Assembly (NCBI GenBank): GCA_947492865.1
Contig: CANLOR010001096.1
Location: forward strand, 1 to 61,563
DNA from: Aurantiphycus algarum
Lineage (GTDB): Bacteria; Bacteroidota; Bacteroidia; Cytophagales; Cyclobacteriaceae
DNA length: 61,563 nucleotides
Direction: 5' to 3'
Part shown: piece after piece, positions 1 to 36,011 of the stretch
How positions within the stretch are numbered: position 1 is the first letter of the stretch
Layout of the letters: each line of letters starts with the position of its first letter
The notes under the pieces: generated by a model
Databases searched by the model: none
Seen by the model: only the letters and a program-made list of their open reading frames with translations
What the model was told of the DNA's origin: nothing
Made by a program: the position numbers and the translations under genes

Positions 1-198
1 CTATCCCGAGGATGGTCAACGCAGAGTGAAACAAAATGAACAGGAAGATATGCGATAGTTAAAAGCTAAGTTTGTATTATATGCTCATCACGATTTCTAT
101 CCATCAATTTGGGTTGAACCCGGATCATGCATTAGCCCTTCTATTGCGGTATTAAATAGCTTTAAATCAACATAAAATAGCATTATCATAAGCCTTTC

Positions 199-1818
199 TT
201 ACCCAATTTCCTCTACCACTTGCTTATCATAGAGCAGTTCTTTTTCACCGAACAGCCTCTCCGCTGTTATTCCCTTGCTCTGACACTCCGCCACCAATCT
301 ATCAGACTGAAGGATAGGATTGGATTCATCGGTATATTTCACACTGCTTATAAATTCGACCCAAGGTTCCTGCCCCATAGCATATACATAAGCCTCTTTG
401 GGATTAAAGATATTGACCAGGGACATCCCTTTTTCACAATCGGAACCGGCCAGTCTTCTACTGCCATCTTTGTCCCTGGAAAGCTCTTCGGTACGCAATG
501 GTCCGTATAACCATGTCAGTGGCGCTCCGTCGCATTCCATACCCAGAAATATGACATCGATATCTCCTACCTGCCGGTGGACATGCTCATACAGCCTAGG
601 TTCCATCACTCTGGAATCTGCTACGAAAAGCAGTGAAAACTCATCGATTTTTACATGAAAACAAGCTTTGGCCTGAATATTCAGATCACTGTGCTCACCC
701 GTAAAAGGCAGGCCCGTGACTTTGGTATCTCCGAAAGAAATGGTTTCCATCTCGTCGATTTCGATGATATTGTCAAATCCTATACGGTTGAACATCAACT
801 TTAGGTTAGGATCCTGTAGCACATTGGTATTGGTCCTGGGCACGATGATGTTTTTTACCTTGTGTCTCAAGGGGAGCAGTGTTTCGAACAGGATATGGTC
901 CTGGTGATTATGGGTAATCAATATGTAGTCTATCGTATCGGGCAGATCTAGGTCCGAAAAATGGTTGACGTTGGAGTGGTATCCATAATAACTGATGAGC
1001 GGGTCAACGAGAATACTTACTTCTTTGGTTTCGATAAGTATACAAGCGTGGCCAAAGTACCGCATTCGGATTTTATCCCCACTGTACTTTTCATAGCCTG
1101 GGTAGGGTGTTGTGGTAAAAAGGTTTTCCAGCAACGTTTCCTGCTGGCCGTCCAAGTCGAAGAACGATTTTATGTGTTCTATCGTCTGCGGTGTTCGCCT
1201 CATCTTACTGATTTCATCTATGCCGGGGTGGTCAAAAGGTATTCTCAGGTGCAAGACGTCCGGTTCTTCGAGTTTAGGGGTACTCAGACAAAATGGTCGA
1301 TGGTCATTATCGGTAATCCAGAAGGCAATACTCTGTGTTTGGGGTTTGTAGTACTTACTTTCATAGAGCAAGGACTCGAATACTCTGAAAGAGGCGTTGT
1401 CGTTGAGGTCATAGGTCAGTTCTACGTATCCTTTGAGGATTTCGGGAACTTCTTCATATAGAGGCTCTAATGAAAAACCTTTTGGGTGATTTTTAAGTAT
1501 GGTGTCGAGTTCCTTGATAGCTTCTGCCAGTGCTATCATGTCAGCTTGATCCCGCAAGGTATTTTCTTTGAGCGATTTCACATCGTCCACTCTTTTACCT
1601 TCAAAATCCATAAAAGGCCCACCCAACATTTTAGGATTCTTTACCGCAGCGGCATGTATCTGTGGAGCCTGGATATAGGAATTCATTATCTTTAAGTGAC
1701 GTCCTGTGATGTTCATCGCAGCTGTAGCCGGTGATATGAGATGGGCCCATGCATACCATCCTTCAACTAGTGGTTCGATGACTACATTGGGTTTGAGGTA
1801 AACTGATCTTTCACTCAT
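199..1818 (-). CDS. CmlA-like non-heme di-iron beta-hydroxylase (N-terminal domain + metallo-beta-lactamase fold), probably acting on a carrier-protein-bound amino acid
   Basis: Track ORF of 539 aa with ATG at 1816-1818. The MBL-fold metal motif HxHxDH reads as 'ITHNHQDHI'. Size and two-domain layout resemble CmlA-type beta-hydroxylases. It is the last gene of the NRPS operon. The function rests on family resemblance read by eye. Confidence 0.6.
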   Translation of the reverse strand: MSERSVYLKPNVVIEPLVEGWYAWAHLISPATAAMNITGRHLKIMNSYIQAPQIHAAAVKNPKMLGGPFMDFEGKRVDDVKSLKENTLRDQADMIALAEAIKELDTILKNHPKGFSLEPLYEEVPEILKGYVELTYDLNDNASFRVFESLLYESKYYKPQTQSIAFWITDNDHRPFCLSTPKLEEPDVLHLRIPFDHPGIDEISKMRRTPQTIEHIKSFFDLDGQQETLLENLFTTTPYPGYEKYSGDKIRMRYFGHACILIETKEVSILVDPLISYYGYHSNVNHFSDLDLPDTIDYILITHNHQDHILFETLLPLRHKVKNIIVPRTNTNVLQDPNLKLMFNRIGFDNIIEIDEMETISFGDTKVTGLPFTGEHSDLNIQAKACFHVKIDEFSLLFVADSRVMEPRLYEHVHRQVGDIDVIFLGMECDGAPLTWLYGPLRTEELSRDKDGSRRLAGSDCEKGMSLVNIFNPKEAYVYAMGQEPWVEFISSVKYTDESNPILQSDRLVAECQSKGITAERLFGEKELLYDKQVVEEIG

Positions 1819-1911
1819 GGTTGTTGTTCTATGATTAATAATGGATTGATTTTATTAGGTATTGACAATACTTCTTCTATTCTATTTTCCCTAAGGAAAT
1901 CGACCATATGG

Positions 1912-3573
1912 CTACTCCTGACGGAGCATGGCCTTTTTAACTACAGGTCTATCTTTCAGAATTTTCCCAAAACCAAAATCGATGACCCTATCGGCGCAGT
2001 TATAATAGTCATCATCATGTGTGACCGCAATAATGGTTTTTCCCATTTGTTTGAGCTTTGGCACAAACTCCCGGTAGAAATAGGCCCTAAAGCGGGGGTC
2101 CTGTTCTGCGGCCCATTCATCCAGTACGATAATCGACTTCTGCTCCAATAAGCTGTAGATCATCGCCAAACGCTTCTGCTGCCCTTTTGATAACCTGCTG
2201 TCGATTTTGTTATTTTCATAATCGACCTTCACTATTTCTTCGAGGTCCATCATTTGGATATAATCCTTTAGTACAACGACCTCTTTGGACAGATCGAAAC
2301 CATAGAAGTTTTCGTTGAATAGGTAATGATTCGTGAAGATAGCGGACATGCTGTCACTGTATCTTGGATAATCTTTGCTGGAAAGGACCTGCCCGTCGAT
2401 ATCGATACTGCCTCCTGAGGGTCTGTAAAGTCCCGTGAGGATATTTATAAACGTACTTTTACCACTCCCGTTTCCACCCGTTATGAATATAACCTCCCCT
2501 TTGGATATGGTCAGATCAATCGGACCAAGGGAGAAAACTTTGTGGTCATCATTATAGTAATCATAAGTAATGTCGTTGAAATTCATCTGATGAAAGTCTC
2601 CTGTTATAAAAGGGGGACTTTTCGGGTCGATGTAATCCGTCGTGAAGGATTTCAGGTCTTTTTCTATTCTGTATATCCTACTTAGGGCAATTTTCACATC
2701 CGTATAAAAGGGTAGGAACATAATGAGTCTCGCTATGGGCGCCATTAGAAAAAGAATGACGGCAATAAATGTAGTCGTCTGGACAGGATCAAAGGACAGT
2801 ATCTGAGGAAGAAGAAAAATAATGACACCGAGTACAACGTACCAACTATAGGTACCCACCAATTCGTTGTCCACATACTTTTTAGAGGCCCTTACTCCGA
2901 GAGCCTTGCCTTGTTGACGGTTCTCTTTAATGTAATTGTTGAACAGGTTATCATTTCTTGTGCTGCTCATTTTTATTTCCTTGAACCCATAGAGTAGCTC
3001 TCGTAGATAGCCATAGTAATGGTCGTGCAGATCTCTTATCTCGCTCAAGTCCCTTTCGATTCCTTTATTTCTCAAAAGATAAACCGTCAAAAGAATGCCC
3101 ATCACGGTCAGCACACTGACTCCTCCTATAGGAGAAATCCAGAACAAGTAACCTAATCCACATACGGTAATCACGGTCGAATTGATTGCATTGACGAAAC
3201 CCTCGGGCACCCTGGCCAGTACTCTAGTATCACTGATGGCCGTATAAAACCGCTGAGAACCCAATTTCTCGAAATTCTCAAAAGCTGTATGCCGGAGTTT
3301 ATCTACAATCGATAGCTCCAGCCCATACAGGATTTCATTGGTGACATTGACCATGTAGTTCTGAAACACCTTGCTCATGACAAATGAGAACACGATCAGT
3401 CCCGAAAAAATCAGCCAGTCATACTCTGGATATGGACCGATGGACTCTCCACTAATGGTATTATTGAGAAATACCAGTATGGAACTGTACACAAAACTGC
3501 TCACACCTCCCAGAAGTATAATGTAGATATAAAACAATCTGGATTTTTGCTGAAATATTTTAAAAACGTTCAC
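1912..3573 (-). CDS. Fused TMD-NBD ABC exporter of the cyclic-peptide transporter type (SyrD/PvdE/YojI-like)
   Basis: Track ORF of 553 aa with an apparent GTG start at 3571-3573. The N-terminal half is hydrophobic. Walker A reads 'GGNGSGKST', the ABC signature 'LSKGQQKRLA' and Walker B 'IIVLDEWAAEQD'. It starts 31 nt downstream of the TE-containing NRPS gene. Confidence 0.85.
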   Translation of the reverse strand: MNVFKIFQQKSRLFYIYIILLGGVSSFVYSSILVFLNNTISGESIGPYPEYDWLIFSGLIVFSFVMSKVFQNYMVNVTNEILYGLELSIVDKLRHTAFENFEKLGSQRFYTAISDTRVLARVPEGFVNAINSTVITVCGLGYLFWISPIGGVSVLTVMGILLTVYLLRNKGIERDLSEIRDLHDHYYGYLRELLYGFKEIKMSSTRNDNLFNNYIKENRQQGKALGVRASKKYVDNELVGTYSWYVVLGVIIFLLPQILSFDPVQTTTFIAVILFLMAPIARLIMFLPFYTDVKIALSRIYRIEKDLKSFTTDYIDPKSPPFITGDFHQMNFNDITYDYYNDDHKVFSLGPIDLTISKGEVIFITGGNGSGKSTFINILTGLYRPSGGSIDIDGQVLSSKDYPRYSDSMSAIFTNHYLFNENFYGFDLSKEVVVLKDYIQMMDLEEIVKVDYENNKIDSRLSKGQQKRLAMIYSLLEQKSIIVLDEWAAEQDPRFRAYFYREFVPKLKQMGKTIIAVTHDDDYYNCADRVIDFGFGKILKDRPVVKKAMLRQE

Positions 3574-3604
3574 TTTTCTTCTTTTTGGTTTGATGATTAA
3601 TTTT

Positions 3605-6600
3605 TTAAACCGTTTCGACTGATCTGATATTCATTATCTTGTCAGTGAGGGACAGTATATTTTCCTTGTTCAGGATTCCATAATGGTCTCCTTCAGTCTC
3701 TTGGACAAAACATCTTGCTTGGGTCAGCCGGTCCCACTCTTGCATATCAGTTGCACAAGGGTTGTCACGGGCTTCTATAGCGTAAATGTTCCCTTTTACC
3801 TGCCCTGTAGGTGTATAGTTATGGAGTGCGAGGAGGTTGGAGTGCAGGACCCGTCTCATAGTTTCAATATGTGATTCGGAAAGGACCGCCATCCAGTGCC
3901 TTAGCTCTGTATCGATTATATTTTCCAACTCATTGGTATCCATACTCTTTTGTGCTGTGCCCGGCACTTCCTTATCCACTAGTATCAGTGTTACCGTATA
4001 GCCTCTATTTTCGGCTTTTTTGGCCATCTCAAAAGCTATTGCGGCCCCCATGGAGTACCCAAAAAGGGTTACCTCCTTCGTATTCTGAGTTTTGAGTACT
4101 TGGCTCAATAAGGAGTCGGATATCGCATCGATACTGGTATCGGGCCGTTCTCCTTCATTATATCCTTTGTACTGCAAGCCCATACACTGATATCTGCCCT
4201 GAAGGAAGGAAGACAATCCTTTGAATATCAAAGGAGTACCGATAACAGGCGGAACCATATACAATTTTTCCGTTTTCCCTTCTTCCGCTTCATTGAGGGA
4301 TATCAATAAATCATCATCACGTTCTCCCTCTATATATGTTGCCAAGGATTGTATGGTAGGATGGTTGTAAATGTCCTTTAGTGTTACCTTTTCTCCTGTT
4401 TCGGTAAAAATTTGGGTAACGAGGGAAGCTGCTTTTAATGATTGTCCTCCTGATTTGAAGAAATTGTCCGTGATGCCGGGAGCGGTTTGTTCGAGTACCT
4501 TCGCCCAGGCTTTTTGGAGTTTTTGCTCTAGATCAGTACTAGCAGTGCTATATTCCTGTACTTGTTTGTTGGCATTGGGCAATTGGGTACTATCTATTTT
4601 ACCATTGGCCGTCAGTGGATAATGCTCTAGAAATACAAAGCTCTCGGGCACCATATATATCGGGAGCAGTCCTTCTACAGCTGATTTCAACTCCACTTCT
4701 GTACAGTGTTGAGCAGGGATTATGTAAGCCGCTAGGTACTTTGACCTCTCCTCTCCTATCACTACTACTTTAGCGGATTTTACCTTTTCATGACTCAATA
4801 GTACGCTTTCTATTTCTCCGAGTTCGATCCTATTGCCCATGATCTTTACTTGATCATCTTTTCTGCCCATGAACCGGATATTACCATCGGGCATCCACAT
4901 ACCCAAGTCTCCCGTGCGGTACCATCTGCTGTTTTCCACAAACAGATCATCCACAAAATTTTTGGCCGTGACGTCTTCATTATTGACATAACCCTCCGAA
5001 AGGCCCATGCCCGATATCAATAGCTCCCCTACCACACCGATACCGCATAGCTTATCACCCTCATCGACAATGTACACTTTCATGTTGGAGATGGGTCTAC
5101 CTATCGGAATATCGGAATTATTGATGTTTTCAAGTCTGAGGGACGTAGCTACCACTGTTGCTTCCGTAGGTCCATAATTATTGACCAAGCGAAAGCCGGG
5201 ATTATCCACTATAGCTAACTTATCACCACCTGTGAGAAGCAGTACGCTGGTGTTTAGAGGTACTTCCTTAACGAAGTTTTCACAAACGGGGGTGGGCAAA
5301 AAAGTATGTGTGATACCATTGAACGCTATATACTTACCTATAGCCAGTACATCCAGTTTCGCATTATCTTCGATAATATGTAGCTCTCCACCCGCTATCA
5401 AACAGGGCCATATCTCCCAGACCGCCGCATCAAATCCGATACCGGCGTACTGGGTCGTCTTACTTTCCTGCCCCACGTCAAATTCCGCATTATGCCATAA
5501 ACAAAGGTTCAATAGGCTTTTATGATTGACCATGACCCCCTTTGGCCGGCCCGTAGAACCCGAGGTGAATATAGTATAGGCCAGGTCGCCTTGTGCATAG
5601 TCGATGTCGAGGTTTTCAGCGGGAGACAGGAAATGTCTTTCCACGATATCCTGTAAAGCCATCGTACTTCGGGCTCCAAGCCTTTCGGGGTGCCTATCCC
5701 AGTATTTATCTACAATCAAAGTACTCAGTTCAGCATCAGCGATGATGTTCTTTATCCTGTCTTTTGGGTACGATGGATCTATAGGGACATAAGCTGCACC
5801 TGCTTTCATTATCCCAAGCATGGCTGTTATCGCATGGACATCCCTATAGGTGACAAGCCCTATCCGTTCGCCTCTTTTGAAAGGAACATTTCGCAGAAGA
5901 TCGCGAGCAAACTGGTTAGCCCTACGGTTCAGCTCGTCATAAGTAATATGTTCTTCCCCGCAATACACCGCCACACCCTGCTGTTTTAGGGAGGCCTGTT
6001 CTTCGAACAGTTGTATTACTGTTCTTGATGTGGGCAGGTGGAGTTCCGTAGCATTGAAATCTTCGCGTATCAGACGCTCTTCCGACTCATCGATATAGCT
6101 GATTTCCTTTATAGGGGCAGTGTCTCTTTCCACTAAGGCCGTCAGTAAGTTTTTAAAATGGGCCATGAGCCTATCGATACGGTATTTCCCGAATAGGTCC
6201 GTATTGTAATTCAGGTTCAGGTAAAGCTTATCGCTGACATTCTGAAAGGAAAAAGTGAGGTCAAACTTACTTGTACCGGTATCACTTGTTACCGCCTCGA
6301 CCTGAAGTGACTCCATACCAAACTCTTGCTCATCTATATTGCTTTCCTGCATCGTTACCATGACACCGAACAAGGGCGACCGGCTCATATCCTGTGGAAG
6401 ACCGAGTTCTTCTATCAGCTTATCAAATGGGTAGACCTGATGTTCGAAAGCATCTATCATGGTATCCCTGACCGATTCAATCAAATGAACAAAGCCTTTT
6501 TCAGCATCGATTTTTGACCTTAAGGCCAGTGTATTCACATAAAAACCGATCTGTTCCTCTAGGCCCGGATGATTTCTACCGGCAATGGGCGTACCTATAA

Positions 6601-9600
6601 TGATATCGTTTTGATGGGTGTACTTATATAATAAGGCTTTGGTAGAAGCCAATAGTACCATAAAAAGACTGGCCTTGTATTTTTTGCCAAGCCCCTCCAA
6701 ATCCTGTTTAAGCTCGCGACCAATGAGTATACTTTCAGTACTACCATTGTAGGTCTGAATAGCGGGCCTCACCCTGTCCATGGGTAGTTTCAGCACAGGT
6801 AGTTCTCCCTCAAACTGTTTCAACCAGTACGCCCTATGCCCATGCGTATCACCCTCATTATCTGACAGTTCTAGAACCTGCCAATGCGCATAATCCTTAT
6901 AGTGAAAAGGTAATGGTTCCAACTTGTGGGAAATACCGGAAGAACAGTAGTTGTAAAACAAAACCAAATCTCTGATCAGCAATTCCATGGACCAGCCATC
7001 AGAGATGATATGATGCATACCAAGAACAAGGACATGCTCCTCCGCGCTCAATTCCACTAATCTTAGCCTGATCAGTATACCTGCCTCCAAATCAAAATAT
7101 TCCGAAGTATAGTCATGGATCATGGAGGACAACCGATCTTCGTCCCATTCCCGATCACTGACATCGGTCTGTTCCAAGTGATAGTCATCTACAGAACGAA
7201 CATACTGTTTCAGGACTCCATCGATGGTCTTAAATCCCGTCCTGAGCACTTCATGCCGATAGAGAAGGTGCTTGAAACTTTCCGAAAGGGCCCTTACCTC
7301 CAATCGTCCCTTTATCCTATACACTTCGGACATATTATAGGCTCTTGCCTCCTTGCCTTCCAACTGATGCAAGATCCACAATCTTTTCTGGCCATGGGAC
7401 ACATCATAGTATTCTGATAAAGGAACTTTGGCAATTTCTCTTTGTATCTTGCCCTTTGACCCATCGATAATTTCACTCAAACCACCCAGTGTCGGTGTAG
7501 TAAAGATATCTCTTAGCTTGAGTTCTACACTCAGCTGTCGGTAGACCATGGAGATCATGCGCATGGCACTGAGCGAATGTCCCCCCAAGGAGAAAAAGTC
7601 ATCATCAAGGCCTACGCGCTCCACGGAGAGCAGATTCTCCCATATACCCGCCAGTTGTTTTTCCAGAGCAGTCCGGGCAGGGCTATGAGCAGTATACCCC
7701 ACGACTCCTTTAGAAGGTATGGGCAAAGACTTTATGTCCACTTTACCGCTTGTGTTCAGAGGGAATTCTTCCATCATTATGAACCGACTTGGGAGCATAT
7801 ATTCGGGAAGTACCTCACGAAGATGAGCTATCAACGTATCCTCTTCGGTCTCGCGGACCGTTTTACAATAGGCAGTAAGGTGCTCTACATGTCCATCATT
7901 CAACACGGGCAGCACTACGGCACCTTCTACTGCCGGATGACTTTCCAATTGGTGTTCTATTTCGCCAAGCTCAATACGGTAGCCCCGAAGTTTCACTTGG
8001 CTGTCCTTCCTACCGAGAAAGTCTATACGTCCGTCGGGCAGCCAGCGGGCCATGTCGCCCGAGCGGTACAGTTTCTCCCCAAGTACAAAAGGACTGTCGG
8101 TGAAGCGTTCCTCAGTAAGTTCGGGAAGGTTCAGGTAGCCTCTGGCCAGGCCCGCACCGGAGATGCACAGTTCTCCGGGCACACCGATAGGCTGTAGACG
8201 GAGGCCCTTATTGACGATATGGACCTTCGCATTTGGTATCGGGCCACCGATGGTAATGGAGTCATTTTTAGAGAGCTCGGTAAAAGTCGTGTCCACTGTC
8301 GCCTCCGTGGGGCCGTACACGTTGATCAGTCTACCCTCTGGGACAAGTTCATGGAAACGCTGTACCAGTGTTGTACGGAGGGGTTCTCCTCCTACCAGCA
8401 CGTAGCTTATACCCGATAGGGCTTCGACTTCTGCCGACTGTAGCAAGATTTCCAGAAAAGAGGGGGTAAGATCCACTATATCCGTCCTGTACCTTTCCAG
8501 AAAACCTAGGTACTCCCGTGCTGACTGTTTTACCGATGCCGGACTGACCACAAGTCTGGCCCCGTGTAGCAGAGGGGCGAACAGTTGCTGGACCGAAGCA
8601 TCAAAGCTGAACGATGCCGTCAACATTACCGACAAACCCTTCTCTCCGTACAGCATCCCCGCCAGCCAGCCAGTAAGGTTGACCACCGCACCGTGCTCTA
8701 CCATGACCCCTTTGGGACGGCCCGTCGAACCAGAGGTATAGATAACGTAGGCCAGATCAGTGGCGGATACCGAGACTGGAGGGCCGACCTCCTTGGGGGT
8801 CTCCAGATTGCAGGAACCGATATCAAGGACGGCACAAGGGCCGGAAATCGATACAGCTGGCCGAGCGCCCACCATCAGCAACAGGGATACACCCGAATCC
8901 TCCACTATATGATCGGTCCTTGATTGGGGGTAGTCGGGGTCCAAAGGTATGTAATGGGCCCCTGCCTTCAGCGTGGCCAGAATCGCCATAACGGTATCCA
9001 CCGAACGGTCAGTGGAAATCGCCACAGGATGACCTTTACCGACACCGCGTTCCCTCAATAGGTGCGCCAGTGCCGTGGACCGGTCATCGAGTTCTCGGTA
9101 GGTCAGCGAACGGTGGCCATCGGCTACCGCCTCCATGTCCGGGGTCTCCCCTGCCTGACGTACGAAAAGCCCGTGAAGAGTATCTTTAGGGGAGAGTTCT
9201 TGTGGCGTACCGCTACCGAAGTCCTCCAAGAGCAGCTTCTTCTCCTCGGAAGACAGCATATCGAGGCTCTCGAGTGCGGCATCGGGGGAGGCTATGACCG
9301 AGGCCACTAGCAGTTCGTAGTGCGACAGCATACGAGACACTGTATCGCGGGAGAACAGGTCCGTGCTGTAGTTGATACCGAGGTAAAGCCCCCGTTCGCC
9401 CTCCTCGAAGTTGAAGGTGAGGTCGAACTTGCTCCGGTCCATACCGGTACCCAGAGGCTCCACGGAGATGCCTTCCAGCTCCATGGCACCACCGATGACA
9501 CCCTCGGACCGCTGGAGGCTCACCATCACATCGAAAAGAGGGGACCTGCCCATGTCCCTGTCCAGCGAGAGACGGTCCACGAGTCTATCGAAAGGAAAGA

Positions 9601-12600
9601 TACCGTGCCGCAGCGCAGAGAGTACGTCCTCTCTTTCCTGCTCCATTAGAGTCCCGAAACCGGCTCCCCCGTCAAGTACGGACCGTAGGGCCAAGGTGTT
9701 CACGTAGAAGCCCGTCTGTCCCTCTAGGTCGGGGTGCTCTCTGCCTGCTGTGGGCGTACCGATGATGGTGTCCTCCTGACCGCTGTAACGGTACAACAGT
9801 ACCCTCACCGTGGCAAGTACCGTCATGAAAAGGCTCGCGCCGTACAGTGCGGAGAGCGATCTCAGTCCTTCCACTGTGGTTCTGGAGAGTTCCATACCCA
9901 CCGTATCGCCCTTATAGGTCTTCACTCTGGGACGAGGATGGTCCGTGGGAAGGTCAAGGACGGGAATATCTCCCTTGAACCGGCCCAGCCAATAGCTTTC
10001 ATGTTCATTGCCATGCGCGTCCAGTTGCTCTTGCTGCCAAGAAGAATAGTCCCTGTACTGTATCCGCAGTGGCTCACGATAAAGGTCGCTACCACTGGCA
10101 AGGGCATTGTAAACGGCAGTAACCTCACTGAGAAAAATGTCCATCGACCAGCCGTCGGAGATGATGTGGTGAAGGGTCAGTAGGAGGACATGCTCCTCAC
10201 CGGAGAGCCTCAGCAGGCCGGCCCGTAACAGTGGTCCTTTTTCAAGGTCGAAGGGAAGCAGTGCCTCCTCTTCGGCAAGCTCAAGGGCCCTTGCCTCTGG
10301 ATTGGCTTCCTCACGGAGGTCTCTCAGGTCCATCCCGAAGCCATGGAAGGCGCCGACCGTTTGCCTCACCTCACCATCGACCATACGGAAGGTCGTCCTC
10401 AGTGACTCATGACGGGACACGGAACGGCTAAAACCCTCTGACAGCGCCTCTATGTCGAGAGTCCCTCTGAGACGATAGGCGCGGGGCATGTTATAGGCCA
10501 CACTGGCTCCGTCTTCAAGTTCGTGCAGGACCCAGAGCCTCTTCTGTCCGTGGGATACACCGTAGTACTCCGAATTCGGAACGGGGGATATCATAGCGAA
10601 GCTGCTCCTATCGGCAGCCGATAGGACAGCGGCCAGGCCATCAAGGGTCGGGTTACGGAATACCTGTCGCAGCGTAAGTGCCACGCCCAGTTGTCCATAG
10701 ACCATGGATATCATGCGCATGGCACTGAGCGAATGCCCCCCTAGGGAGAAAAAGTCATCATCAAGGCCCACACGCTCCACAGAGAGCAGATTCTCCCATA
10801 TATCCGCCAGTTGTTTTTCCAGAGCAGTCCGAGGGGCCACGTAGACAGTTCCCGTAACATCGGACACTGCGGAGGGGGAAGGGAGCGCATCTATGTCCAC
10901 CTTGCCATTAGCAGTCAGTGGGAATTCCTTCAAAAAGAAGAAGCGCCCGGGAACCATATACTCGGGAAGAAGCTCTTCCAGATACGATGCTATTGACTTT
11001 AAAGATAAATCTTCTCTAGTTTTCAAGTATCCGACAAGACTCACTGTCATACCTTCCTTAAGTATGGGCATGACAACGGATTTTTCTACCTGTGGATACT
11101 CTTCCAATAATCTTTCTATTTCTCCAAGTTCAACTCTATACCCTCTCAGTTTCACTTGTCTGTCCTTTCTACCGATATATTCTATATGGCCATCGGGTAG
11201 CCAGCGGCCGACATCTCCCGACCTATATAGCTTTTCCCCTTTCCTGAAAGGGCTATCCACGAACTTTTCCTCAGTAAGCTTAGGACGGTTGAGATAACCT
11301 TTTGCCAAACCTGCTCCCGCTATACAGATTTCCCCCGGTACGCCTATAGGTTGTAATTGAAGGCTGTCATTGACTATATATATTCCTACGTTCGGCAAAG
11401 GCTTCCCTATGGTGACGGTATCCTCAAGCTCCACCCATGTGGCCGTAGCATCCACTGTGGCTTCGGTGGGGCCATACATGTTGAGAAGTCGACCATCGGG
11501 TACCCTATCATAAAATAGTCTGACCAAGCCCTCTTTTAGCGGCTCTCCTCCCAGTAGAACCGATTTGAGGTTTAGAAAAGTACTGCTTGACTCTGCGTAT
11601 TGAAGGATGACTTCCAGGAAAGAGGGTGTAAAATCAACGGTATCGACTTTGTTATCGATGATCAGTTTCAGATAGGACGCGGGAGACTGCTTGGACTCTT
11701 GTGTGCTGATCACCACTGTGGCCCCATGATACAGCGGAGCGAACAATTGCTTTACGGACATATCAAAACTAAAGGAAGAGGTATGCAATGCTACCATTCC
11801 GGTACGGTCGTACAAGAGTTCTCCAAGCCATTTGGAAAAATTGACTACAGAGCGGTGACGGACCATTACTCCTTTCGGGGTACCTGTTGATCCGGAGGTA
11901 TAGATTACATAGGCCAAGCTGTCAGAGCTTACTTTTACTTCATCAGGTTCGCTGAAGGCCATTTTTTCAAAATCAAGATCGTCAAACCTTATCACATTGA
12001 GCGCTATGATTTCCCGAACTTTTTTTGGGAGATCTCGATCGGTCAATAGCTGTCCTACATTGGAATCTTTCAAAATATAGGTTATTCTTGATGCAGGGTA
12101 TTCTGGATCTATAGGGATGTAATAGGCTCCTGACTTCAAGACGGCCAATATGCTGATGACCATTTCTGTAGAACGACCGACATATATGCCCACGGGATGT
12201 CCGGCTTTTGTACCCTTTGCCCGTAACATGTTCGCTAGCTTTGTTGTCTTTTCATCCAAAGACCTGTAAGTAATCGAACCGAACTCATCGACAAGGGCGG
12301 TCAGGCCCGGGGTTCTACTCACTTGGTCTTCAAACAAATCTTGTAGCGTTATGTCCTTGAAAAGTGTGGTATCGGTAGTGCTATTATTAAACGTATCCGA
12401 CAAAACGAGTCTTTCTTTCTCCGGTAGTATCGACAAAGTACTCAGGGGCCGCGATGGATCAAGGGTGAGTGAAAGTACCAATGTTTCATATTGGGCCAAC
12501 ATACGTTCGATGGTTTGATGTAGGAAAATATCCCTATTATAGTTGAGCCACAAATACAATCCTTCTTCTACTTCTTCAAAGTTAAAGGTCAAATCAAATT

Positions 12601-15600
12601 TGGCATGTGTGGCTTCTGCACTGAAGGTCTTCACGTGCAATTCTTCCATTTCTTTACTTCCCCCTACAATTCCGGATGTATTTTGCAGAATGACCATCAC
12701 ATCGAATAATGATGCCCTGCTCATTTCACGTTCTAAGGAGAGGGAGTCTATCAAAGCATCAAACGGATACATTTGATGTTCGAAAGCTTCAAAAGTTCTT
12801 TCGGTGACATTTTCCAAGAGTCTATCAAATCCCTCTTCTCCACTGAACTGGGTTCTTAGTGCTAGGGTATTGATATAAAAGCCGATTTGATCTTCAAGGT
12901 CGGGGTGATTTCTTCCAGCAATGGGAGTACCCAATACAATATCCTGCTGCCCCGTATAGCGATACAAAAAAGCGTTTACAGTAGCCAGTATCGTCATAAA
13001 TAAGCTGGCCTCATGCTGTAGTGCGAGCGTATTCAAAGCTTCTGTTACTTCGCTGGAAAGTAGGATACCGGCCATCTCTCCTTTGTAGGTTTTTACAGGG
13101 GGCCGGATAAAATCTGTAGGTATATCGAGTATGGGGGGACCATCTTCAAACTGTTCCACCCAAAACTTTTCGGCTACGGATATCTCCCCATCGGGAAATT
13201 GGTCTTTTTGCCATAAGGCATAATCTTTGTATTGGATTCTCAGTGCGGCCGGGCTAGGATTTTTCCCGTTTTTATAAGCGTTATAAAAATCGGCCACTTC
13301 GTTGAAAAGTATTTCCAAAGACCACCCGTCTGAAATAATGTGATGTAAGGTAAGGAGAAATACATATTTATGTGCTGACAACTTAATCAGTTTTGCCCTG
13401 ATGAGCGGCCCTTCTTCCAAATCGAATGGTACTCTGGCCTCTTCGTTGGCCATGCTCTTGGCCTTATCTTCCGATGCTTCGATTTCACTCAGGTCCGTAT
13501 AGGGTATATCAAGATTTTTCCATGGGCGGATTATTTGTTTTACCTGACCTTCTACCAGTGTAAACGTAGTGCGCAATATTTCATGACGCTCGATCAATTG
13601 ATCAAAGCTTGCCTTCAGTGCTTTGATGTCCAAAGGGCCTTCAAAAAGGTATGCCGCCGGCATGTTGTAGGCCGAGGCCGCTTCACCTTCCAGTTGTTGT
13701 AGTATCCATAAGCGTTTCTGACCGTGGGATACATCATAATACTCGGCGCTTGGAACACGACCTATGGGCTCAAAAGTTTGTTTTTGGGATTTGTCCAGTA
13801 CAATGGCCAGCTCTGCTATGGTCGGCGTTTCGAATATTTGCTTAAAGGTCAGTTCTACATCAAAAACCTTACTGATACCCGTGATTACCCGGATGGCTTT
13901 TAGTGAGTGTCCTCCTATTTCAAAGAAATTATCCTGGATTCCTATACGCTCTTTCTGTAGTACATCTTGCCATATTTCTACAAGCCTTTCTTCTACGGCA
14001 TTTCCAGGAGCCTCGTATGTTTTCCTGATGGTCGCCTTGTCAGGTCTTGGAAGACTACCTACATCGATTTTGCCGTTTACAGTAAGTGGAAGGGATGTCA
14101 ACTCTATATAATCCGTAGGAATCATATAGACAGGCAGTAATTTTTCCAAAGACCTTTTCAGTGTCAGGGCATCCGTTTCTTTGGCATCACTTGTTTTAAC
14201 AAAATAGGCACATAAAGACTTCTCATTTTCCTCATTACCCCATGCCATCACTTTGACTTTCTCTAGGTTAGGATTCTGGAGCAGAGTACATTCAATCTCA
14301 CTGGGTTCTATTCTGAACCCTCGAATCTTCACCTGATCATCTACCCTGCCCATAAACGATATCAAGCCATCAGAGCGCCATTGTGCTTTGTCTCCCGTTT
14401 GGTAAAGAGTGCCTTTGGCAAAAGGTTTTTCAACAAACTTTGCTTTGGTCAGTTGATGGTCGCCCAGATAGCCGCGGGCCACTCCCTCACCTCCCAAATA
14501 CAATTCTCCGGAAACTCCCGTAGGGCATATATTGCCCCACCGGTCCACAATATAGGCAGTGGTATTGCTTATCGGTTTGCCTATAGGGATGTTGACTTCA
14601 TGTTTTTTATCGATAGTATAACAAAGGGAAAATGTGGTGTTTTCCGTAGGCCCATAACCGTTGACCAATTTCAGTTTCGGAAACCTGTCCCTTACTTCGT
14701 TGATGTGATGGGGTGACAGTGCCTCTCCTCCCACCAATAGCCAGGACAGAGAGGAGAAGACTTCAATATCGTGATCTACTACCTGATTGAACCAAGAGGA
14801 GGTCATCCACATCGTCGATATTCTGCTCTCTATCAGTTTTTGTTTCAGTGAGTCGGTTTTCAGTAGTTCTTCCTGTGGTAGGATATGAAGTTCGCCCCCA
14901 TTCAATAAAGCTCCCCAATATTCAAAGGTGGTGGCATCAAAGGATATGGATCCGGTCTGTAAGATTTTTGTCTGACTATCCAGCTCGACATAATTAGTGT
15001 TTTTCACCAGTCGAATGACATTTCTATGTTCTACCATGACACCTTTGGGCTTGCCCGTAGTCCCGGATGTGTAAGCAATATAGGCTAGGTCAGAAGGCAT
15101 AATCGTACTTGGGGGATTGTCCGATATCTCCGCATACACCTCTTCACTGTCGAGCATCAGTAGTTCGACACTTCCCAGTTGTTGTTCTTCCAAGAGCTTT
15201 AAAACGGTATCGTTCAACGTGACCAATAACAAGTTCATTTTACTATTGGACAAAACGTAGCCTATTCGGTCGCTCGGAAAGTCAATATCTATCGGCAAAT
15301 AAGCTCCGCCTGCTTTGAGGATACCCAGTATCCCTATGATCAGTTCTTGGGATTTGTCCAATAACAGCCCGACGGGGGTACCCTTGGCCAACCCTTTGTT
15401 CTTTAGTGTATGGGCCAGCCTATTGGCTTTCTCATTTAGTTCGGTATAGGTCAATGCCACATCATCATAGACCAGTGCCACACTCTGGGGACTGTTCTGT
15501 ACCTGTTGTTCAAATAGTCTCGGAATATTGTCCGTATCAGGAAGGGGTACCCTTGTGTCGTTATAATCGATGAGCCACTGATTTCGTTCTTCTTTTGTGA

Positions 15601-18600
15601 GCAATTCTATATCCGAGAGTAATCTTTCGGGACTACCGATGATTTCCTTTAAAAGGAATGTATAGTGTCCGAGCATCCTTTCTGCGGTACTTTTTAAAAA
15701 CAGTTCGGTACTATATTCCAGTCCAAGTCGTATACCGTCGTCATATTCGACACAGTGTAATGTCAGGTCAAATTTAGAACTCTGTTGTCCCTCCAATTCA
15801 TACGGTTCTATATGACTTTCCTGCAATTGATCATTGGACTCTTCTTCGTTATGGTAGGAAATCATCACATCGAACAATGGACGTCTTCCTGCTTTCGTAT
15901 CCAAGTGGAGAGCTTCCACCAAATCGTTAAACTGAAAGTCCTGATTTTCAAAAGCTTCTACACTGATAGCTTTTACCTCGTTGAAGAACGTTTTTATCAT
16001 TTTATCTCCTTTGGGCCTTGCCCTAAGGGCAATCGTGTTGACCATCATACCAATGACCGAGCGAAAGGCCGGGTTTTGTCTTCCAGAAGTAACGGTACCG
16101 ATGATAATGTCCTCTTGGTTCGAATATTTGCTCAAAAACAGGTAGTAGGCGGTCAGCATAAACATAAACAGGGTAACCCCTTGTTCTTCGCAGTAATCCT
16201 TCAAAGTCCTTAATTGGTATTTATCAAATACAATCGATACGTTGTCTCCTGAACCTGTAATCGAATCCGGCCTGATATGATCTGTGGGAAGTTCCAGTTG
16301 GGGGATATCATTTTCAAACTGTGCCAGCCAGTAGTTTTTCTGGCTGATCAGGGTATCGCTGTCATTGAGTTTTTGTTGCCATAGGGCATAATCCCTATAT
16401 TTTGTTTCAACCTTTGGTAACTCAAAACCGGAATAGAGCTGCGAGAATTCATAACTGATGAGGTCTTCCGATATACCGTCTATGATGATGTGATGCTTAT
16501 CGATAAGTATTAGGTATAGCTCTTGGTCTACTTCTCTCAGTTCAATGATTTTTATCCTTAATAGCGGCCCTGAACTAATATCGAATGGTTTTATGAAATG
16601 ACGTATCTCCTGTAGTACTTCCTTCCCGTTCAGCTTCCAATCGAAACTTTCTACATGCTCTATTTCAAAATCCCATTCATCGGAAATAACCTGAACGGGT
16701 GTCCCTCCCTCTGACCTGAATGAAGTCCTGAATATCTCATGTCTAGCAATCAAGGTATCGAATATCCCCCTCAAATGGTCTATGTCCACTTTACAACGAA
16801 TGAGCAATGCTTGAGGCATATTATATACCAGACTTTTGGGATTCAGTTGGTATAGGGCATAAAGACGGAGCTGCGCGGAAGATAGGGGGTATACTGAATT
16901 TTCTGTTTCCTCGGTTTCTTTAATGACAATACTTTCTTCACTTGCTTTTTCCATTGTGGCAAGTAGGCATTTTGCCAATTCGGAGATTGTAGGGTGCTGG
17001 AAAATCTGTTTTATGGATAGGCTGACCTGAAATGCCTTATTGATAGCTCCTATGAGCCGAATAGCTTTTAGAGAATGCCCCCCTAACTTAAAAAAATGAT
17101 GCCGAATACCTACTTCCTCGATATTCAATATCTTTTCCCATAGTGCCACCAACTGTTTTTCGGTTTCATTTCTAGGTGGTTCATAACTGAGCGAATTCTC
17201 CACGGCATTCGGTTTGGGCAAGGATTTTCTATCCACCTTACCATTGACGGTCAGCGGCATTTTTTCCAATACCACAAAGTGCTGGGGTACCATATATTCC
17301 GGGACTCTTTCAGTAACAAACTGCCTGATTTCTTCACTAACGGTTACTCTTAAAATGTTTGCAGGAGTATAGTAAGCACAAATAAACCTGTCGTTGACAT
17401 CGTCCTTACCTGTCAGGACCAGTACGACTGCCTCTTTGACTTCCGGACTCTCCAACAATACCTGTTCGATTTCGTCCAGCTCGATTCTATAGCCTCTGAT
17501 TTTTACCTGATTGTCCTTTCTGCCCAAAAATTCGACTTGGCCATCGGGCAGCCATTTGGCGGTATCTCCTGTCAGGTACATCACCCCTCCATTAAAAGGG
17601 TCTTTCACGAACCTTTCATCAGTTAGGTTTTTTTTATTCAAATAACCTCTCGCTACGCCTGTCCCTGCTATGCACAACTCCCCTACCAGACCTTCGGCAA
17701 CAAATTGCCTGTTTTTGTCCAATATATAGAACTTGGTATTGGCCATCGGCTTTCCGATAGGTACATAAGGAATATCCTCTACCTGATCGACACTGGATAC
17801 CTCATAAAATGAGGAGTCAATAGTGGTCTCGGTAGTACCATAACTGTTGATTATCCGTATATCCGCACCATGCCTGGCCAGTAATGTCTTGAAGTCCCCT
17901 ACCGGACAGCTATCCGAGCCCAATATCAGCATATTCAACCAAGATATATCCAGTTCCTTATCGAAAATATAACTCATCAAGGGTACCGCATAAGAGGGTG
18001 TCACCTCTAAAACACTGACTTGGTGTTTTTCCATGATACCAAAGAGTCCCGCAGGGTCCAGTCGAGCCTCATCGGGGCAGAGTACGAGCTTTCCACCGGA
18101 CAGTAGACTTCTACATAGGTCCCCACAGAAAACATCGAATGAGAAACTTGCCATCTGTAAAACTGTGGTCTTATCGCTTAGACCATACTCTTCTATCCAG
18201 CATTGTGCTATGTTGACCAAGGAACGATGGGTGACCATTACTCCCTTTGGCTTACCTGTTGTTCCTGAGGTATAGATTACATAGGCTAGGTTATCCTCGT
18301 CATGGGAGATTTGGGGATTCGAAATGTCCTTACTGTATGTGTCCTCATTGTTCAGGTCCAACACTCCTCCTACGCTCAGGTCTTGGATTGTTTCCTTCCC
18401 TGTATTGAACAATAGCAGGTTTATATCAGCATCCTCGATGATATATCTGATACGCTCGGCAGGGTAAGTATAATCTATCGGTAGGTAGCCGGCACCGCTT
18501 TTTAGTACTGCCAGCACTGCTACTATCATCTCCGGGGACCGCTCTGCCATGATTCCGACCAGCACTTCCGGTCCACAACCTTCTGCTATAAGACGGTGAG

Positions 18601-21600
18601 CCAATCGATTGGCCCTCTCGTTGAGCCGGTTATAGGTGAGTCGCTCTTCACCGAATACTACTGCTGTTCCAGTTCCATAAAATGCCACTTTTTCCTCAAA
18701 AAGGGTAATCATCGTTTTTCCTTTTTGATAATCCTTAAAGGTATTATTATAGGTTTCCAGAAAAAGTGATTCTTCCTCCTCGCTCAGGTACTTTAGGTAG
18801 TCCAAAGGTTTTGTAGGGTTGGAAATGGCATCTCTCAAGATATGTTCTATATGAGTAGACATCCGTTCCATTCTATGGCCCCCGAAAAGATCCGAATTGT
18901 ATGAAATGGCAAGAAATAGCTCCCCATCGTCCTCGGGGGTAAAATCTATGGAAAGGTCGAACATGCTGGTACTCACATCTCCTTCCAGCATAGCAGAAGA
19001 AAGACCTTCTAATTTCAGGTCGTCAATGGACACCTCATTTAGGTTTTGTAATGAAACCATGATGTCAAATATGGGGGACCGGCTCAGGTCCCTTTCCAAA
19101 TCAAGATTGTCCACCAACATATCAAAGGGATAGTCTTGATGGTCATAAGCTTTTACTAAGTTTTCCTTCACTTTTTGCAGTAGGGACCCGAAACCTTCAC
19201 CCCCCGAGAACCTTGTCCTCAGGGCCAGTGTGTTGACATAAAAGCCTATCTGATTCTCTAGATCACTGCGATTCCTTCCTGCAGAAGGGCTACCGATGAC
19301 AATATCATCCTGACCTGTATACCGATATAGCAATGCCTTAGTGGCAGCTACCAGTACCATGTACAAGCTCAACCCTTGCCTTTTGGCAAAATCATGTACT
19401 TGTTCTGAAAGTCCTTTCCCGAGCGACCTGTGAAAGCTACCTCCATTATAGGTTTTGACAATGGGCCTTTTATAGTCTGTCGGCAATTGCAGGACAGGAA
19501 CCTCACCAGAGAATTGCTCAAGCCAATAATTTTTACTTGATGTAAAGACTGCTCCATCAAGTTGATTGTACTGCCAAGCAGCATAATCCTTATATTGAAT
19601 TGCTAAGGGAGGAATATCAGCGTCTTGACCTTGTAGGTACGCATTGTAATAGTTACACAGCTCTGACATCAACACCTGCATGGACCAACCATCTACGATA
19701 ATGTGATGTACAGTAAGCAAAAACAGGTGTTCGTTGTCCGCTATCCGGTATAGTTTAACCCTTAACAAAGGGCCTTCAGACAGGTCAAAGGGCTGCACTG
19801 CTTCTTTTTCGGCAAGTTGTTTTAGGGAGTTTCTATCCACATGGCTATCCCGAAGGTCAACATATCCCAGATCAAAGTCCGTGTCTTCAGGGCTTTTGAC
19901 TATCTGCACGGGCTGTTCATCGATACTACCGAAAGTAGTACGAAGTATTTCATGTCTTGCGATGCTCTTTTCGAAAGCAATACGGAGCACTTCCCGATTC
20001 AGGTCTCCCGTTAAGAGAACTGCCAAAGGTATGTTATAGGCTACTTGGTCTTCTTCCAATTGGTCCAGTATCCAAAGCCGTCTTTGCGCATGCGATATGG
20101 CGAAACCTTTCCCGAGAGTATCGTTTTTCACGCTTTCAATGGGTTGATAACGGGAAGAAGTCTTGTTTTCAAGGATCTTGGACAATGCAACAATGGTAGG
20201 GTTTTGGAACACTTCTTCCAAACTTGGTTTTATTGCCAGTTCCTGATGGATTTTCGAAACCAGTTGGGCTACTTTTAGCGAATGCCCACCTACCTCAAAG
20301 AAATTATCATTTACTCCTACCTTTTTCAGGCCCAATATTTCCTGCCATATGTCAACCAGACTTTTTTCTATAGCGGTCGATGCTTCCCTGTACTCCTGCC
20401 TTGTTGCCCTACGCTCTTCATACAGGTGCATCAATGCTTTTCTATCTATTTTCTGATTAGGGTTCAATGGCCACTCCCTTAGCGCTACAAAAAACGCGGG
20501 AACCATATACTCGGGCAGGTATTGTTTTAAGGTACCCTGAAAAGCGCGAGGGTCAGTTTCTCCGCCGATGTAGAAAGCTATAATGTACTTGGACCCTTCA
20601 CTATCCTCATGCGCGAGCACACATACATCCTCCAAATCGGTATATTCCAATAAACGGCTCTCGATTTCACCGAGTTCTATTCTATACCCTCTTATTTTGA
20701 CCTGAAAATCGTCTCTTCCCGAAAACCTGACCTGTCCCATGCTGTCCCACATCCCAATATCCCCTGTTCTGTAGAGGATATCCTCTTTTTGAAAAGGGTT
20801 ATCCACAAACTTTGTGGCACTAAGCTCTCCTCTATTGTGATAACCAAGGGTGACACCGCTTCCACCGATACAGATTTCTCCCTTTACACCCTCTGGAACC
20901 AAGTTATTCTCTTTATCCAATAGGTAAATATCAGTACCGGGCATGGGGCGACCGATGATACTGCCACTGACACTTGATTTGCTAAAAGTATCATTGGAAT
21001 AGGTAATGGCAGTGCAAAACACTGTCGCCTCGGTCGGTCCATAGGTAACTGATATACTCGCTTTCGGAAAGGCATCCGATAGCATAATCAATAATCGGTC
21101 GGGGACACTATCTCCACCGATAAACAGGTGTACTATATGCTCAAATTCTTTTTGAGCATTGTTTTCCAAGATATAAGTGGCCACTTGTCGGTACACAGCG
21201 GGTACCGTATCCACCACCGTTGCCTCTTTTATCCGGCCCACGAAGTTGGCGATATCCAATACTACTTCCGGCATCAATATATCTACGGTACCTCCCTGCA
21301 CCAAAGGGAGAAAGACTTGAAACATCGCGATATCAAAGGCATTGGATGCAATAAAAGGCATTATCAATGGTCGATGCCATGTAAAATGGGATTGTACATG
21401 ACTCAAAAAACCATTTAGATTCCGATAACTCACCTTGACTCCTTTGGGTTTTCCGGTAGAGCCGGAAGTATAGAGGATATAGGCTATATCCCTCGGGAAA
21501 TACGTAGGTTCAAACTTAGACGAAAGCCCCTCAAGTCCCTCCCACACTTCCTCCTGATAAAGATATGGAGTAGTGCCGGGTTTATAGGTTTGATTCCGGT

Positions 21601-31600: not shown

Positions 31601-31647
31601 ATGGCAATTTCCAATCCGGTATAGTCAGGGTATGCTTCAGTTTTCAT
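28615..31647 (-). CDS. Type I PKS module KS-AT-CP with no reductive domains; malonyl-type AT
   Basis: Track ORF of 1010 aa. The KS has active-site Cys 'TACSSAL' (Cys codon about 31099-31101) plus 'EAHGTGT' and 'KSNIGHS'. The AT has 'FPGQGTQY', 'GHSLGEY' (Ser about 29773-29775) and 'HAFHS' (about 29476-29487, a malonyl-type motif). The carrier protein has 'EIGGDSL' (Ser about 28786-28788). No KR, DH or ER sequence is present. The gene overlaps the upstream gene by 11 nt and the downstream gene by 4 nt. Confidence 0.95.
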   Translation of the reverse strand: MKTEAYPDYTGLEIAIVGMACRFPDAANWREYWDNLIQGKEALHRISDDELKAQGWDEESINRKDFVKVRATMKGKDTFDASFFGYGQYEAEVLNPIHRQFHECVWEALEDAGYVPSAVNGKISLYAGAGDDSNWKAHVMLGNQKRRQHDIALGFLSEKDHLTTLVSHKLNLQGPSFFINTACSSALSAVDLACKGLLMGEAKIAIAGGVSVNTRQKEGYFYEEGSIKSSDGHCRAFDTQASGSVGSEGVGAVVLKRLREAIDDGDHLYAVIKGSATNNDGNAKVGYAAPSMDGQVACIKKAQNIAGVKPESIGYVEAHGTGTRLGDPIEVGALNMAFGNTIHHSCAIGSVKSNIGHSDSAAGIAGLIKTALCLKYRKIPPSINYDRPNPEIDFEAGPFYVNTALTHWESDDHAPLRAAVSSFGVGGTNAHAILEEAPKPMESSLGKEFHLLTISAKSEKSLVDYKCRLAQFIKEEHEVNLADMCYTLLTGREHFEYRQHRVCTNKEDLIRFLEVANSKEQQKTQRKDKRPVVFMFPGQGTQYLNMSRKLYGSEWVFRQEMDEGFATIEKFTGKDFKKVLFTEDGIDNDINRTLYTQPIIFMMEYALAKLMMSYGIEPDLMIGHSLGEYVAACLSGVFALEDALWLMVKRGELMDGLERGSMVSASLTEEAAAPYLNEGVYLAAINSPSQLVFSGTPSAISALRAALDDTEVMHLTLRSSHAFHSGIQDPIKEKYHETVERVELHKPNIPFISSVTGEFIRDEEATSVLYWVRQMRETVQFSRSIATSVQEHENALFIEIGAGNTLTSLANEQMAHSQSPLNPVKGKRETINDGEFFANCLGNIWSEGIEVDWNRYYQQEKRTKVPLPTYAFAQTPYPVQVDPFTDFEKNAPNKETENKRNTPADSTGQVQHDSDFGKYQGTPTEETLRRIYQTFFGNENIGIDDEFLEIGGDSLNGMILVNTIRNDTEVELKLKDFFEKSTIRKLATLVDQIKISKVKKNLIERKTVKI

Positions 31648-35787: not shown

Positions 35788-36011
35788 GAAATAGGCTTCT
35801 CATAATCGGGAAGGAGTAGCCTGTTACAATGCCCCGAACATGGGTACTCATCCTGGGATTTTCATTCCATGGTAAAATAAAACCACCAAATATCGAATGC
35901 CGGACCATTACTTCATCTTCGGGTACAGCGCATTTGACCAGCGGTTTATAACTTTATAAATTACTTCAAGGCCAAGAAAATGGGTTCCATAAATGCCATG
36001 GGCTCCGAATA

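Follow-up and report, generated by a model that had tools for sequence, protein, structure and literature searches.

A high-G+C mosaic segment of probably foreign compositional origin in a six-module peptide synthetase gene of Aurantiphycus algarum

Contig CANLOR010001096.1 of the Bacteroidota species Aurantiphycus algarum (assembly GCA_947492865.1), analysed here over its whole stretch of 61,563 nt (the window), carries the gene of a 6360-aa nonribosomal peptide synthetase (NRPS) with six modules. A block of high G+C is confirmed inside this gene and covers most of module 5 together with the carrier domain upstream of it. We consider it probable (roughly 0.6) that the block is a genuine recombinant segment with a composition of foreign origin, whereby a thiolation (T) domain, a condensation (C) domain and the core of an adenylation (A) domain would have been replaced via a related, GC-richer assembly line, and a small patch of the next T domain would have been added. 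An earlier sequence-only reading had proposed natural swapping of a uniform unit consisting of T4, C5, A5 and half of T5. Its main observation is borne out, while the uniformity of the unit is not.

A block of high G+C within the NRPS gene

Most of the window is a hybrid cluster of polyketide synthase (PKS) and NRPS genes, which is the home of the gene in question:

3605-22687, minus strand: six-module NRPS gene, 6360 aa (list of open reading frames (ORFs), Pfam domain matches, core-motif map).

Pfam matches comprise Condensation, AMP-binding, PP-binding and a terminal Thioesterase (TE). The modules are arranged as (C-like N-terminus)-A1-T1, C2-A2-T2, C3-A3-T3, C4-A4-T4, C5-A5-T5 and C6-A6-T6-TE. 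Protein positions are converted to the window by coordinate = 22687 - 3(aa - 1).

In windows of 600 nt, G+C rises from ~0.44 to 0.54-0.59 between ~7800 and ~10800. A maximum-likelihood fit of two change points on the gene places the block at 7904-10888 with a G+C of 0.571 inside and 0.444 outside (log-likelihood ratio 81). Gene, frame and domain positions are as described in the sequence-only reading. Of its hand counts per 60 nt, 20-24 for the flanks is too low, as the actual G+C of ~0.44-0.46 corresponds to ~26-27.

All three codon positions contribute to the shift (GC1, GC2 and GC3, i.e. G+C at first, second and third positions), with a local GC3 of 0.55-0.76 vs ~0.45. The GC3 of the block is 0.63, whereas other windows of 996 codons in the same gene (n=130) show 0.458±0.009 with a maximum of 0.481, and the neighbouring 6986-aa NRPS gene ranges from 0.447 to 0.512. 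Synonymous codon usage differs between block and rest (chi2 = 209, df 41, p = 2e-24). The shift in GC3 and codons on which the earlier proposal hinged is therefore massive. The protein follows the same trend. Lys (2.2 vs 5.8%), Asn (1.7 vs 4.1%) and Ile (3.6 vs 6.9%) are depleted relative to the rest, Arg (6.9 vs 4.6%) and Gly (9.2 vs 6.5%) are enriched and so is Ala, in agreement with the enrichment of Arg, Ala and Gly noticed before in C5-A5. Low K/N/I combined with high R/G/A is typical of proteins whose evolution took place in GC-rich genomes. An artefact of amino-acid composition was considered and rejected, as a cumulative sum (CUSUM) restricted to synonymous codons yields the same block.

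Among windows of 1.5 kb across the whole stretch, the block is the sole outlier (peak z = 6.3). The minimum of the same scan (29.9% G+C) probably represents an intergenic or cluster-edge region. Host DNA past the cluster, available as 8 kb of a contig from a metagenome-assembled genome (MAG; positions 13574-21662), has 38.7% G+C compared to the 44% of the cluster; its genes for a NusG/UpxY-like antiterminator, a polysaccharide deacetylase and a TPR protein are in line with a Bacteroidota host. Measured by G+C, GC3 and synonymous codons against its surroundings, the block thus has the composition expected of horizontally acquired DNA. The plus-strand ORFs noted earlier in this interval (7577-8197, 8585-8923, 9320-9649, 9411-9707 and 9734-10183) exist. 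They have no Pfam match, and true antisense genes were rejected in favour of a by-product, open antisense frames being expected in GC-rich coding DNA.

The segment is a mosaic with edges at conserved motifs

The block and its two boundary zones are located as follows:

7904-10888, minus strand: core high-G+C block, aa 3934-4928 (two-change-point fit, GC1/2/3 profile, codon usage).
10877-10993, minus strand: 5' boundary zone, aa 3899-3937, comprising A10 of the A4 domain (aa 3923) and the first part of the A4-T4 linker (likelihood-profile support interval, total G+C).
7898-8047, minus strand: main 3' boundary zone, aa 4881-4930, comprising the A8 hinge GRKDSQVKLRG (aa 4892) and the residues right after it (CUSUM, change points).

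In the direction of translation, the individual parts have the following composition:

aa 3700-3899: A4, GC3 0.42, native.
aa 3934-3952: A-T linker of module 4, GC3 0.63, foreign-type.
10694-10831, minus strand: N-terminal half of T4, aa 3953-3998, helix 1 through FFSLGGHSLSAMRMISMVY, GC3 0.57, foreign-type; copy 1 of a direct repeat (repeat search, protein and codon alignments).
10628-10693, minus strand: C-terminal half of T4, aa 3999-4020, G+C 0.62, GC3 0.59, foreign-type.
9308-10627, minus strand: C5 condensation domain with HHIISDG at aa 4173, aa 4021-4460, GC3 0.67, foreign-type.
8003-9307, minus strand: A5 core with the specificity code DAQDLGVVDK, aa 4461-4895, GC3 0.62, foreign-type.
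7676-8002, minus strand: C-terminal subdomain of A5 (A5sub) and A-T linker, aa 4896-5004, GC3 0.42-0.47, native-type.
7538-7675, minus strand: N-terminal half of T5, aa 5005-5050, GC3 0.63, a foreign-type island between native-type flanks; copy 2 of the direct repeat.
7472-7537, minus strand: C-terminal half of T5, aa 5051-5072, GC3 0.36, native-type.
aa 5073-5500: C6 onward, GC3 0.49, native.

At the 5' side, GC3 changes after aa 3907 and the CUSUM of synonymous codons has its minimum at aa 3900-3927. At the 3' side, the CUSUM maximum is found at aa 4908, with change points after aa 4903 (GC3) and aa 4928 (total G+C). The A8 region located here is a repeat conserved among the modules at DNA level. 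Beyond aa ~4908 the CUSUM continues with an intermediate slope to aa ~5055 and adopts the native slope afterwards.

The intermediate stretch is resolved by its parts. For native reference, the C-terminal A subdomains (Asub) of other modules have a GC3 of 0.39-0.50 and native N-terminal T halves one of 0.35-0.41. In a binomial comparison, the GC3 of the 109 codons of A5sub is improbable at the foreign rate (P = 4e-5) but not at the native one (0.62). Since A5sub fits the native and not the foreign rate, the tract is a mosaic and not a uniform block from T4 to half of T5. The outer coordinates of the sequence-only reading, 7542 and ~10980, are close to the end of the T5 patch (7538) and within the 5' boundary zone, respectively. 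The unit is in frame and of module scale as proposed. What had been taken as its uniform interior consists of linker, T4, C5 and A5 core, followed by a native A5sub and a separate patch of 138 nt in T5.

A nearly identical repeat in T4 and T5

The N-terminal halves of T4 and T5 (138 nt) are 92% identical at nucleotide level with sharp edges on both sides, and their spacing of 3156 nt equals one module. The C-terminal halves of the same two domains share just 54% of their nucleotides. Both N-half copies have the atypical core FFSLGGHSLSAMRM, where the norm of the cluster is FFE[LI]GGHSLKA. The next-best pair of carrier-like sites anywhere in the window has a nucleotide identity of 0.63, and general concerted evolution of T domains was rejected as the source of the repeat on this ground.

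The two copies differ by a dS of 0.29 and a dN of 0.019, compared to a strain-level divergence of 0.0004. These values point to a divergence that is not very recent and to purifying selection on both copies. Hence, the claim that module swapping was 'caught' in the act is overstated, at least as far as this part is concerned. Foreign-type sequence adjoins the T4 copy without interruption on either side, whereas the T5 copy is an island in native-type flanks. In all likelihood, the N-terminal half of T5 was therefore either rewritten by gene conversion, with T4 as the template, or brought in together with the main segment as a further patch of the donor.

The repeat may also be read differently. 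As it brackets exactly one module at a spacing of 3156 nt, it would fit a net insertion, in which an ancestor with five modules received a foreign T-C-A unit, with or without the N-half of the next T, with crossovers in A10 or the linker and within the T domain. A donor with already homogenised T domains would then have supplied both T N-halves, and the lower GC3 of A5sub would be a local fluctuation. Such an event is in line with the 3' edge of the repeat, which is located inside the T domain near the breakpoint region of XUT exchange units (see the last section), with the 3' support interval extending to aa 5059 and with the outer coordinates given by the sequence-only reading. However, a GC3 of 0.45 over the 109 codons of A5sub is hard to reconcile with the foreign rate (the P value given above) and typical of native Asub, and the CUSUM slope changes at aa ~4908 and not at 5050. 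We therefore regard net insertion as unlikely, though not negligible.

C5 and A5 are closest to C4 and A4 of the same gene

Identities between module units are in the range of 0.35-0.43 (amino acids), with the exception of units 4 and 5, which reach 0.51. C4 is the best match of C5 (50%) and the A4 core that of the A5 core (50%), both ahead of every retrieved database match. The paralogy of C5-A5 with C4-A4 stated in the sequence-only reading is hence well founded (~50% identity). In neighbour-joining trees with the best external sequences, A4 and A5 are sisters in 182/200 bootstraps. C4 and C5 group together in 113-116/200 bootstraps within a weakly supported clade of C domains of the cluster, and C4 is the nearest neighbour of C5 in 150/200 replicates. 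C2, C4, C5 and C6 have common best external relatives in Agaribacillus and other Bacteroidota (43-48%). The separate phylogenies suggested for C5 and A5 thus recover the paralogy with C4 and A4 and no grouping with outside sequences.

A recent tandem duplication of module 4 was rejected, as the units share 51% of their amino acids and the 92% nucleotide identity is confined to the 138 nt of the T N-half. Likewise, A5sub shares only ~53% of its amino acids with A4sub and is hence no recent copy of it. Because A5sub is native-type as well, a module 5 was most likely present in the recipient before the event, which argues for replacement.

The close relationship of C5 and A5 to C4 and A4, combined with the fact that no donor is known, would also suit a history without any transfer, i.e. 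a native module 5 whose G+C was raised in place by selection on protein or mRNA or by a local mutational bias. The shift is however strongest at synonymous sites and abrupt at motif boundaries, it affects T, C and A alike but skips A5sub, and none of the ~12 other modules in the window shows anything comparable. No mechanism is known by which GC3 could climb by 17 points across 3 kb within a bacterial gene. A purely native origin of the block is hardly credible.

The structure recurs in independent assemblies

The data are metagenomic, the junctions coincide with conserved motifs and an in-frame join is what would be expected between homologous genes. Hence the homologous clusters of two co-occurring organisms could in principle have been joined by the assembler. 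The window itself corresponds to ENA contig ERZ6864376:c_000001724865. The same structure is present in a MAG contig of 148 kb (GCA_947492745.1) with 6 single-nucleotide polymorphisms (SNPs) over 13.6 kb, 3 of them in the block and 3 outside. Moreover, it is found in Logan contigs from two runs. ERR9287621_955192 (window 120-10171) and ERR9287624_823218 (window 120-8729) both cross the 3' edge, while ERR9287624_40821, which contains the gene up to aa 4662 (window 8700, calculated), crosses the 5' edge.

Breaks of the Logan contigs fall within the block at A3 and C3 motifs and not at the block edges. The ERR9287624 contigs break at the A3 motif of A5 (8700-8729) with an overlap of 30 nt, and the ERR9287621 contig starts at the HHxxxDG motif of C5 (10171). 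Assemblies based on k-mers fall apart at conserved NRPS motifs, and most NRPS entries in the databases are short fragments for this reason. The two flanking repeats share no exact match longer than 28 nt, which is below k = 31. In addition, the fine mosaic at the 3' side (native Asub, foreign-type T5 N-half, native T5 C-half) is not produced by a simple mis-join at two points. As independent assemblies span both junctions, a chimera appears unlikely, in fact strongly so; together with in-place drift it is the least likely of the rival explanations. The mis-assembly against which the sequence-only reading had cautioned is accordingly not apparent in any of these contigs.

Origin of the segment

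In our preferred explanation, a stretch of ~2.9 kb comprising the A4-T4 linker, T4, C5 and the A5 core (aa ~3934-4895) would have spent a long period in a genome with ~55-60% G+C before it was joined in frame into an assembly line of ~44% G+C, the host flank having ~39%. Two conserved motifs may have served as sites of homeologous recombination in this joining: in module 4 the A10/LPxP-linker junction, and in A5 the A8 hinge. The resident T-C-Acore would have been replaced in this swap with no net insertion of a module. As C5 and A5 have their closest known relatives in C4 and A4 of the very same gene, the segment most likely came from a related assembly line of a relative with higher G+C rather than from an unrelated NRPS. 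The 138 nt of the T5 N-half may represent a later intragenic conversion from the imported N-half of T4 or a second donor patch in one mosaic tract. While the separate compositional history of a module-scale unit is well supported, it is composition by itself that argues for the horizontal origin.

Several observations weigh against this explanation. Phylogenetic discordance was not found in the trees of C5 and A5, both of which sit with paralogues of the cluster, and the bootstrap support for C4+C5 is just 56-58%. With regard to relatives in another lineage or a donor, the phylogeny is accordingly no evidence for horizontal acquisition, the nearest sequences being C4 and A4 of the same gene. 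The support interval of the 3' boundary based on total G+C is wide (aa 4881-5059), and a uniform foreign tract up to aa 5050 with a locally GC3-poor Asub is, strictly speaking, conceivable. Searches of protein indexes, GTDB genomes, JGI metagenomes and plasmids revealed no donor or donor relative, with best external identities of 36-46%. An index of 5.8 billion proteins gave at most 44% identity for the whole block and 43% for the variable part of A5; this search returned proteins up to ~1.75x the query length, and the 6360-aa protein itself was not among them. A library of 1.84 billion representatives contained the protein itself and otherwise matches of up to 43%, ranked by a score summed over modules such that a close relative of medium length could slip by. 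GTDB species genomes reached up to 41% and JGI metagenomes up to 46% identity, and blastn against plasmids yielded motif-level matches only. As the protein searches have blind spots for long NRPS proteins, the absence of a donor is weak evidence.

Likewise, no orthologous cluster with or without this module was found via genome searches or via homologues of the downstream exporter. The best homologues of the latter are from Fulvivirga (imtechensis; 58%) and Roseivirga (56%), in addition to a forest metagenome contig. The two genera suggest a Cytophagales-like Bacteroidota as the uncultured host. The contigs of Fulvivirga imtechensis and the forest metagenome stop a short way upstream of the exporter and before any NRPS, leaving none to compare.

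The domain clades that C5 and A5 share with the other modules of the cluster would also be compatible with a source within the genome, i.e. conversion of the segment from a GC-richer NRPS cluster of the same organism, which renders a separate horizontal step into this gene unnecessary. NRPS genes are known to recombine readily with paralogues (PMC8097286). The genome as far as seen however has 39-48% G+C throughout, and no second copy is present within the 61.5-kb window or the 8 kb beyond. Moreover, a paralogue of 57% G+C in a genome of ~39-44% would itself need a foreign origin. Conversion from within the genome thus appears improbable compared to import from a GC-richer relative.

Predicted function of module 5 and the surrounding cluster

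The reading frame of 19 kb is unbroken through the high-G+C block. Over the whole protein, A3 motifs are located at aa 408, 1474, 2541, 3598, 4652 and 5709 and HHxxxDG motifs at aa 994, 2065, 3115, 4173 and 5225. Module 5 is a canonical C-A-T elongation module with respect to domain order and core motifs (Pfam, motif map), which are HHIISDG (aa 4173), SGSTGRPKG (4652), GRKDSQVKLRG (4892), PLNTSGKVD (4976) and LGGHSL (5034). With the frame and all core motifs kept, the product line appears to be intact. A4 has the specificity code DMKDLGMVDK and A5 the code DAQDLGVVDK, which we take to be Glu-like and the canonical Gln code of the Stachelhaus table, respectively. Module 5 is hence predicted to load Gln, and the peptide is predicted to end in Glu-like-Gln-Leu at its C-terminus.

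Another, unusual code, DIFDFGT[VI]FK, is found in three A domains that form a single clade in the A-domain tree: A1 of the 6360-aa gene (21466 region), a stand-alone A-T protein of 873 aa (31637-34258) and the A domain at aa ~4731 of the 6986-aa gene (39227-60187). The uncommon building block of these domains is probably loaded three times in the pathway. In the 6986-aa protein, the A domains at aa ~3378 and ~5790 give DGGVVVAVYN with Asn at the position of the invariant Lys517; either these domains are atypical or interrupted or the anchoring of the alignment is off.

The genes in 34264-39196 encode three tailoring or precursor functions, namely a fusion of a biopterin-dependent aromatic amino-acid hydroxylase and an aminotransferase (695 aa), a glyoxalase-fold protein and a FAD-linked oxidase. 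This trio suggests the supply of a modified aromatic acid precursor. The 1947-aa NRPS at 22775-28618 has a docking domain of TubC_N type (weak match), and a monooxygenase domain of Bac_luciferase type adjoins its A domain. At the other side, 199-3573 contains a cyclic-peptide exporter followed by a CmlA_N/metallo-beta-lactamase-fold protein, likely a beta-hydroxylase. The pair is found in synteny on Fulvivirga imtechensis AMZN01000041 and on a contig from forest soil, both of which have an additional type II thioesterase between the two genes and end at the position of the NRPS.

Comparison with known systems

Recombination is an established driver of NRPS diversification (PMC8097286). Bozhüyük et al. 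(bioRxiv 10.1101/2022.12.02.518901) proposed a breakpoint in the T domain as well as T-C-A or XUT units that cross differences in G+C, and put them to use in engineering; in the same work, the A-T linker is 'fusion site I', which yields T-C-A units. The upstream junction of an XUT unit is placed in the A-T linker (site I) or in the T core motif (sites III/IV), and the interval of aa 3899-3937 found here corresponds to site I. Like XUT units, the segment is of T-C-A type and module scale, starts in the A-T linker and joins sequences of very different G+C, a combination that according to these authors can function in engineered form. A second composition switch is located inside T5, ~12 residues past the phosphopantetheine (Ppant) serine and near the FFxxGGxS breakpoint region. 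The downstream junction of an XUT unit would be expected in the next A-T linker or T core motif, with exchange of the entire A domain. Here the main 3' edge appears to be the A8 hinge and not the T domain: the main change occurs at aa ~4903-4928 just past A8, A5sub is native-type, and the edge in T5 (aa 5050) belongs to the separate patch, although the 3' support interval for total G+C extends to aa 5059. Furthermore, this T edge lies downstream of the core motif after the helix-2 residues MVY and not within FFxxGGxS.

Natural swaps of the Acore or its subdomains in NRPS of cyanobacteria and other organisms (Baunach et al. 2021, PMC8097286) share with the segment the recombination at conserved A motifs, and module 5 apparently retained its own Asub. 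In a swap of the Acore only, the native C domain and the C-A linker are retained, whereas in the present case not only the Acore but also T4, C5 and the C-A linker are foreign-type and would have moved together. The 5' junction is moreover found at the A10/LPxP-T-linker, a site that natural events are said to avoid in favour of a native Asub-T interface (PMC8097286). Consequently, the native A4sub now seems to face a foreign-type T4, at odds with the supposed rule to 'keep Asub-T native'.

A8 is also a breakpoint in swaps of T-C didomains (PMC8097286). Replacements between T(C)-LCL and T(E)-E-DCL, which extend from A8 to the next A1, resemble the segment in this breakpoint and in the transfer of T with the downstream C domain. 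Unlike in those events, no E domain is involved, A8 represents the downstream edge (module 5) and not the upstream one (module 4), and the Acore is included while the upstream Asub is not exchanged. Compared with compositional genomic islands, the classical signature of horizontal transfer, the abrupt discontinuity in G+C, GC3 and codon usage is the same. The segment differs by being an in-frame piece of 3 kb inside a single ORF with edges at motif-coding sequence, and by lacking mobility genes, tRNA and att-like ends.

Recombination of modules and subdomains, accepted to be the principal source of NRPS diversity, guides the engineering rules behind XU, XUC, XUT and Acore swaps, and most natural examples have been inferred from phylogenies among relatives of similar G+C. 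Here the foreign piece is visible in raw composition, and its edges (A10/A-T linker, A8 hinge and a short patch within T) can be read to a few tens of codons without the donor. A far-reaching interpretation would be a natural, functional exchange of T-C-Acore over a G+C gap of ~13-18 points, in which the T5 N-half was overwritten so that both native-type Asub face the same foreign-type carrier surface. We consider this quite doubtful. If, in addition, the T5 patch was adaptive, matching an interface rather than resulting from neutral conversion, it would indicate a natural 'repair' rule for junctions in hybrid NRPS, and A10/linker to A8 would be a new exchange unit validated by evolution. Provided that the enzyme is active, the segment would offer engineers a field-tested T-C-Acore unit tolerating a large distance in both G+C and sequence. 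Taken together, the segment is an unusually legible example of a known process and not a new kind of system.

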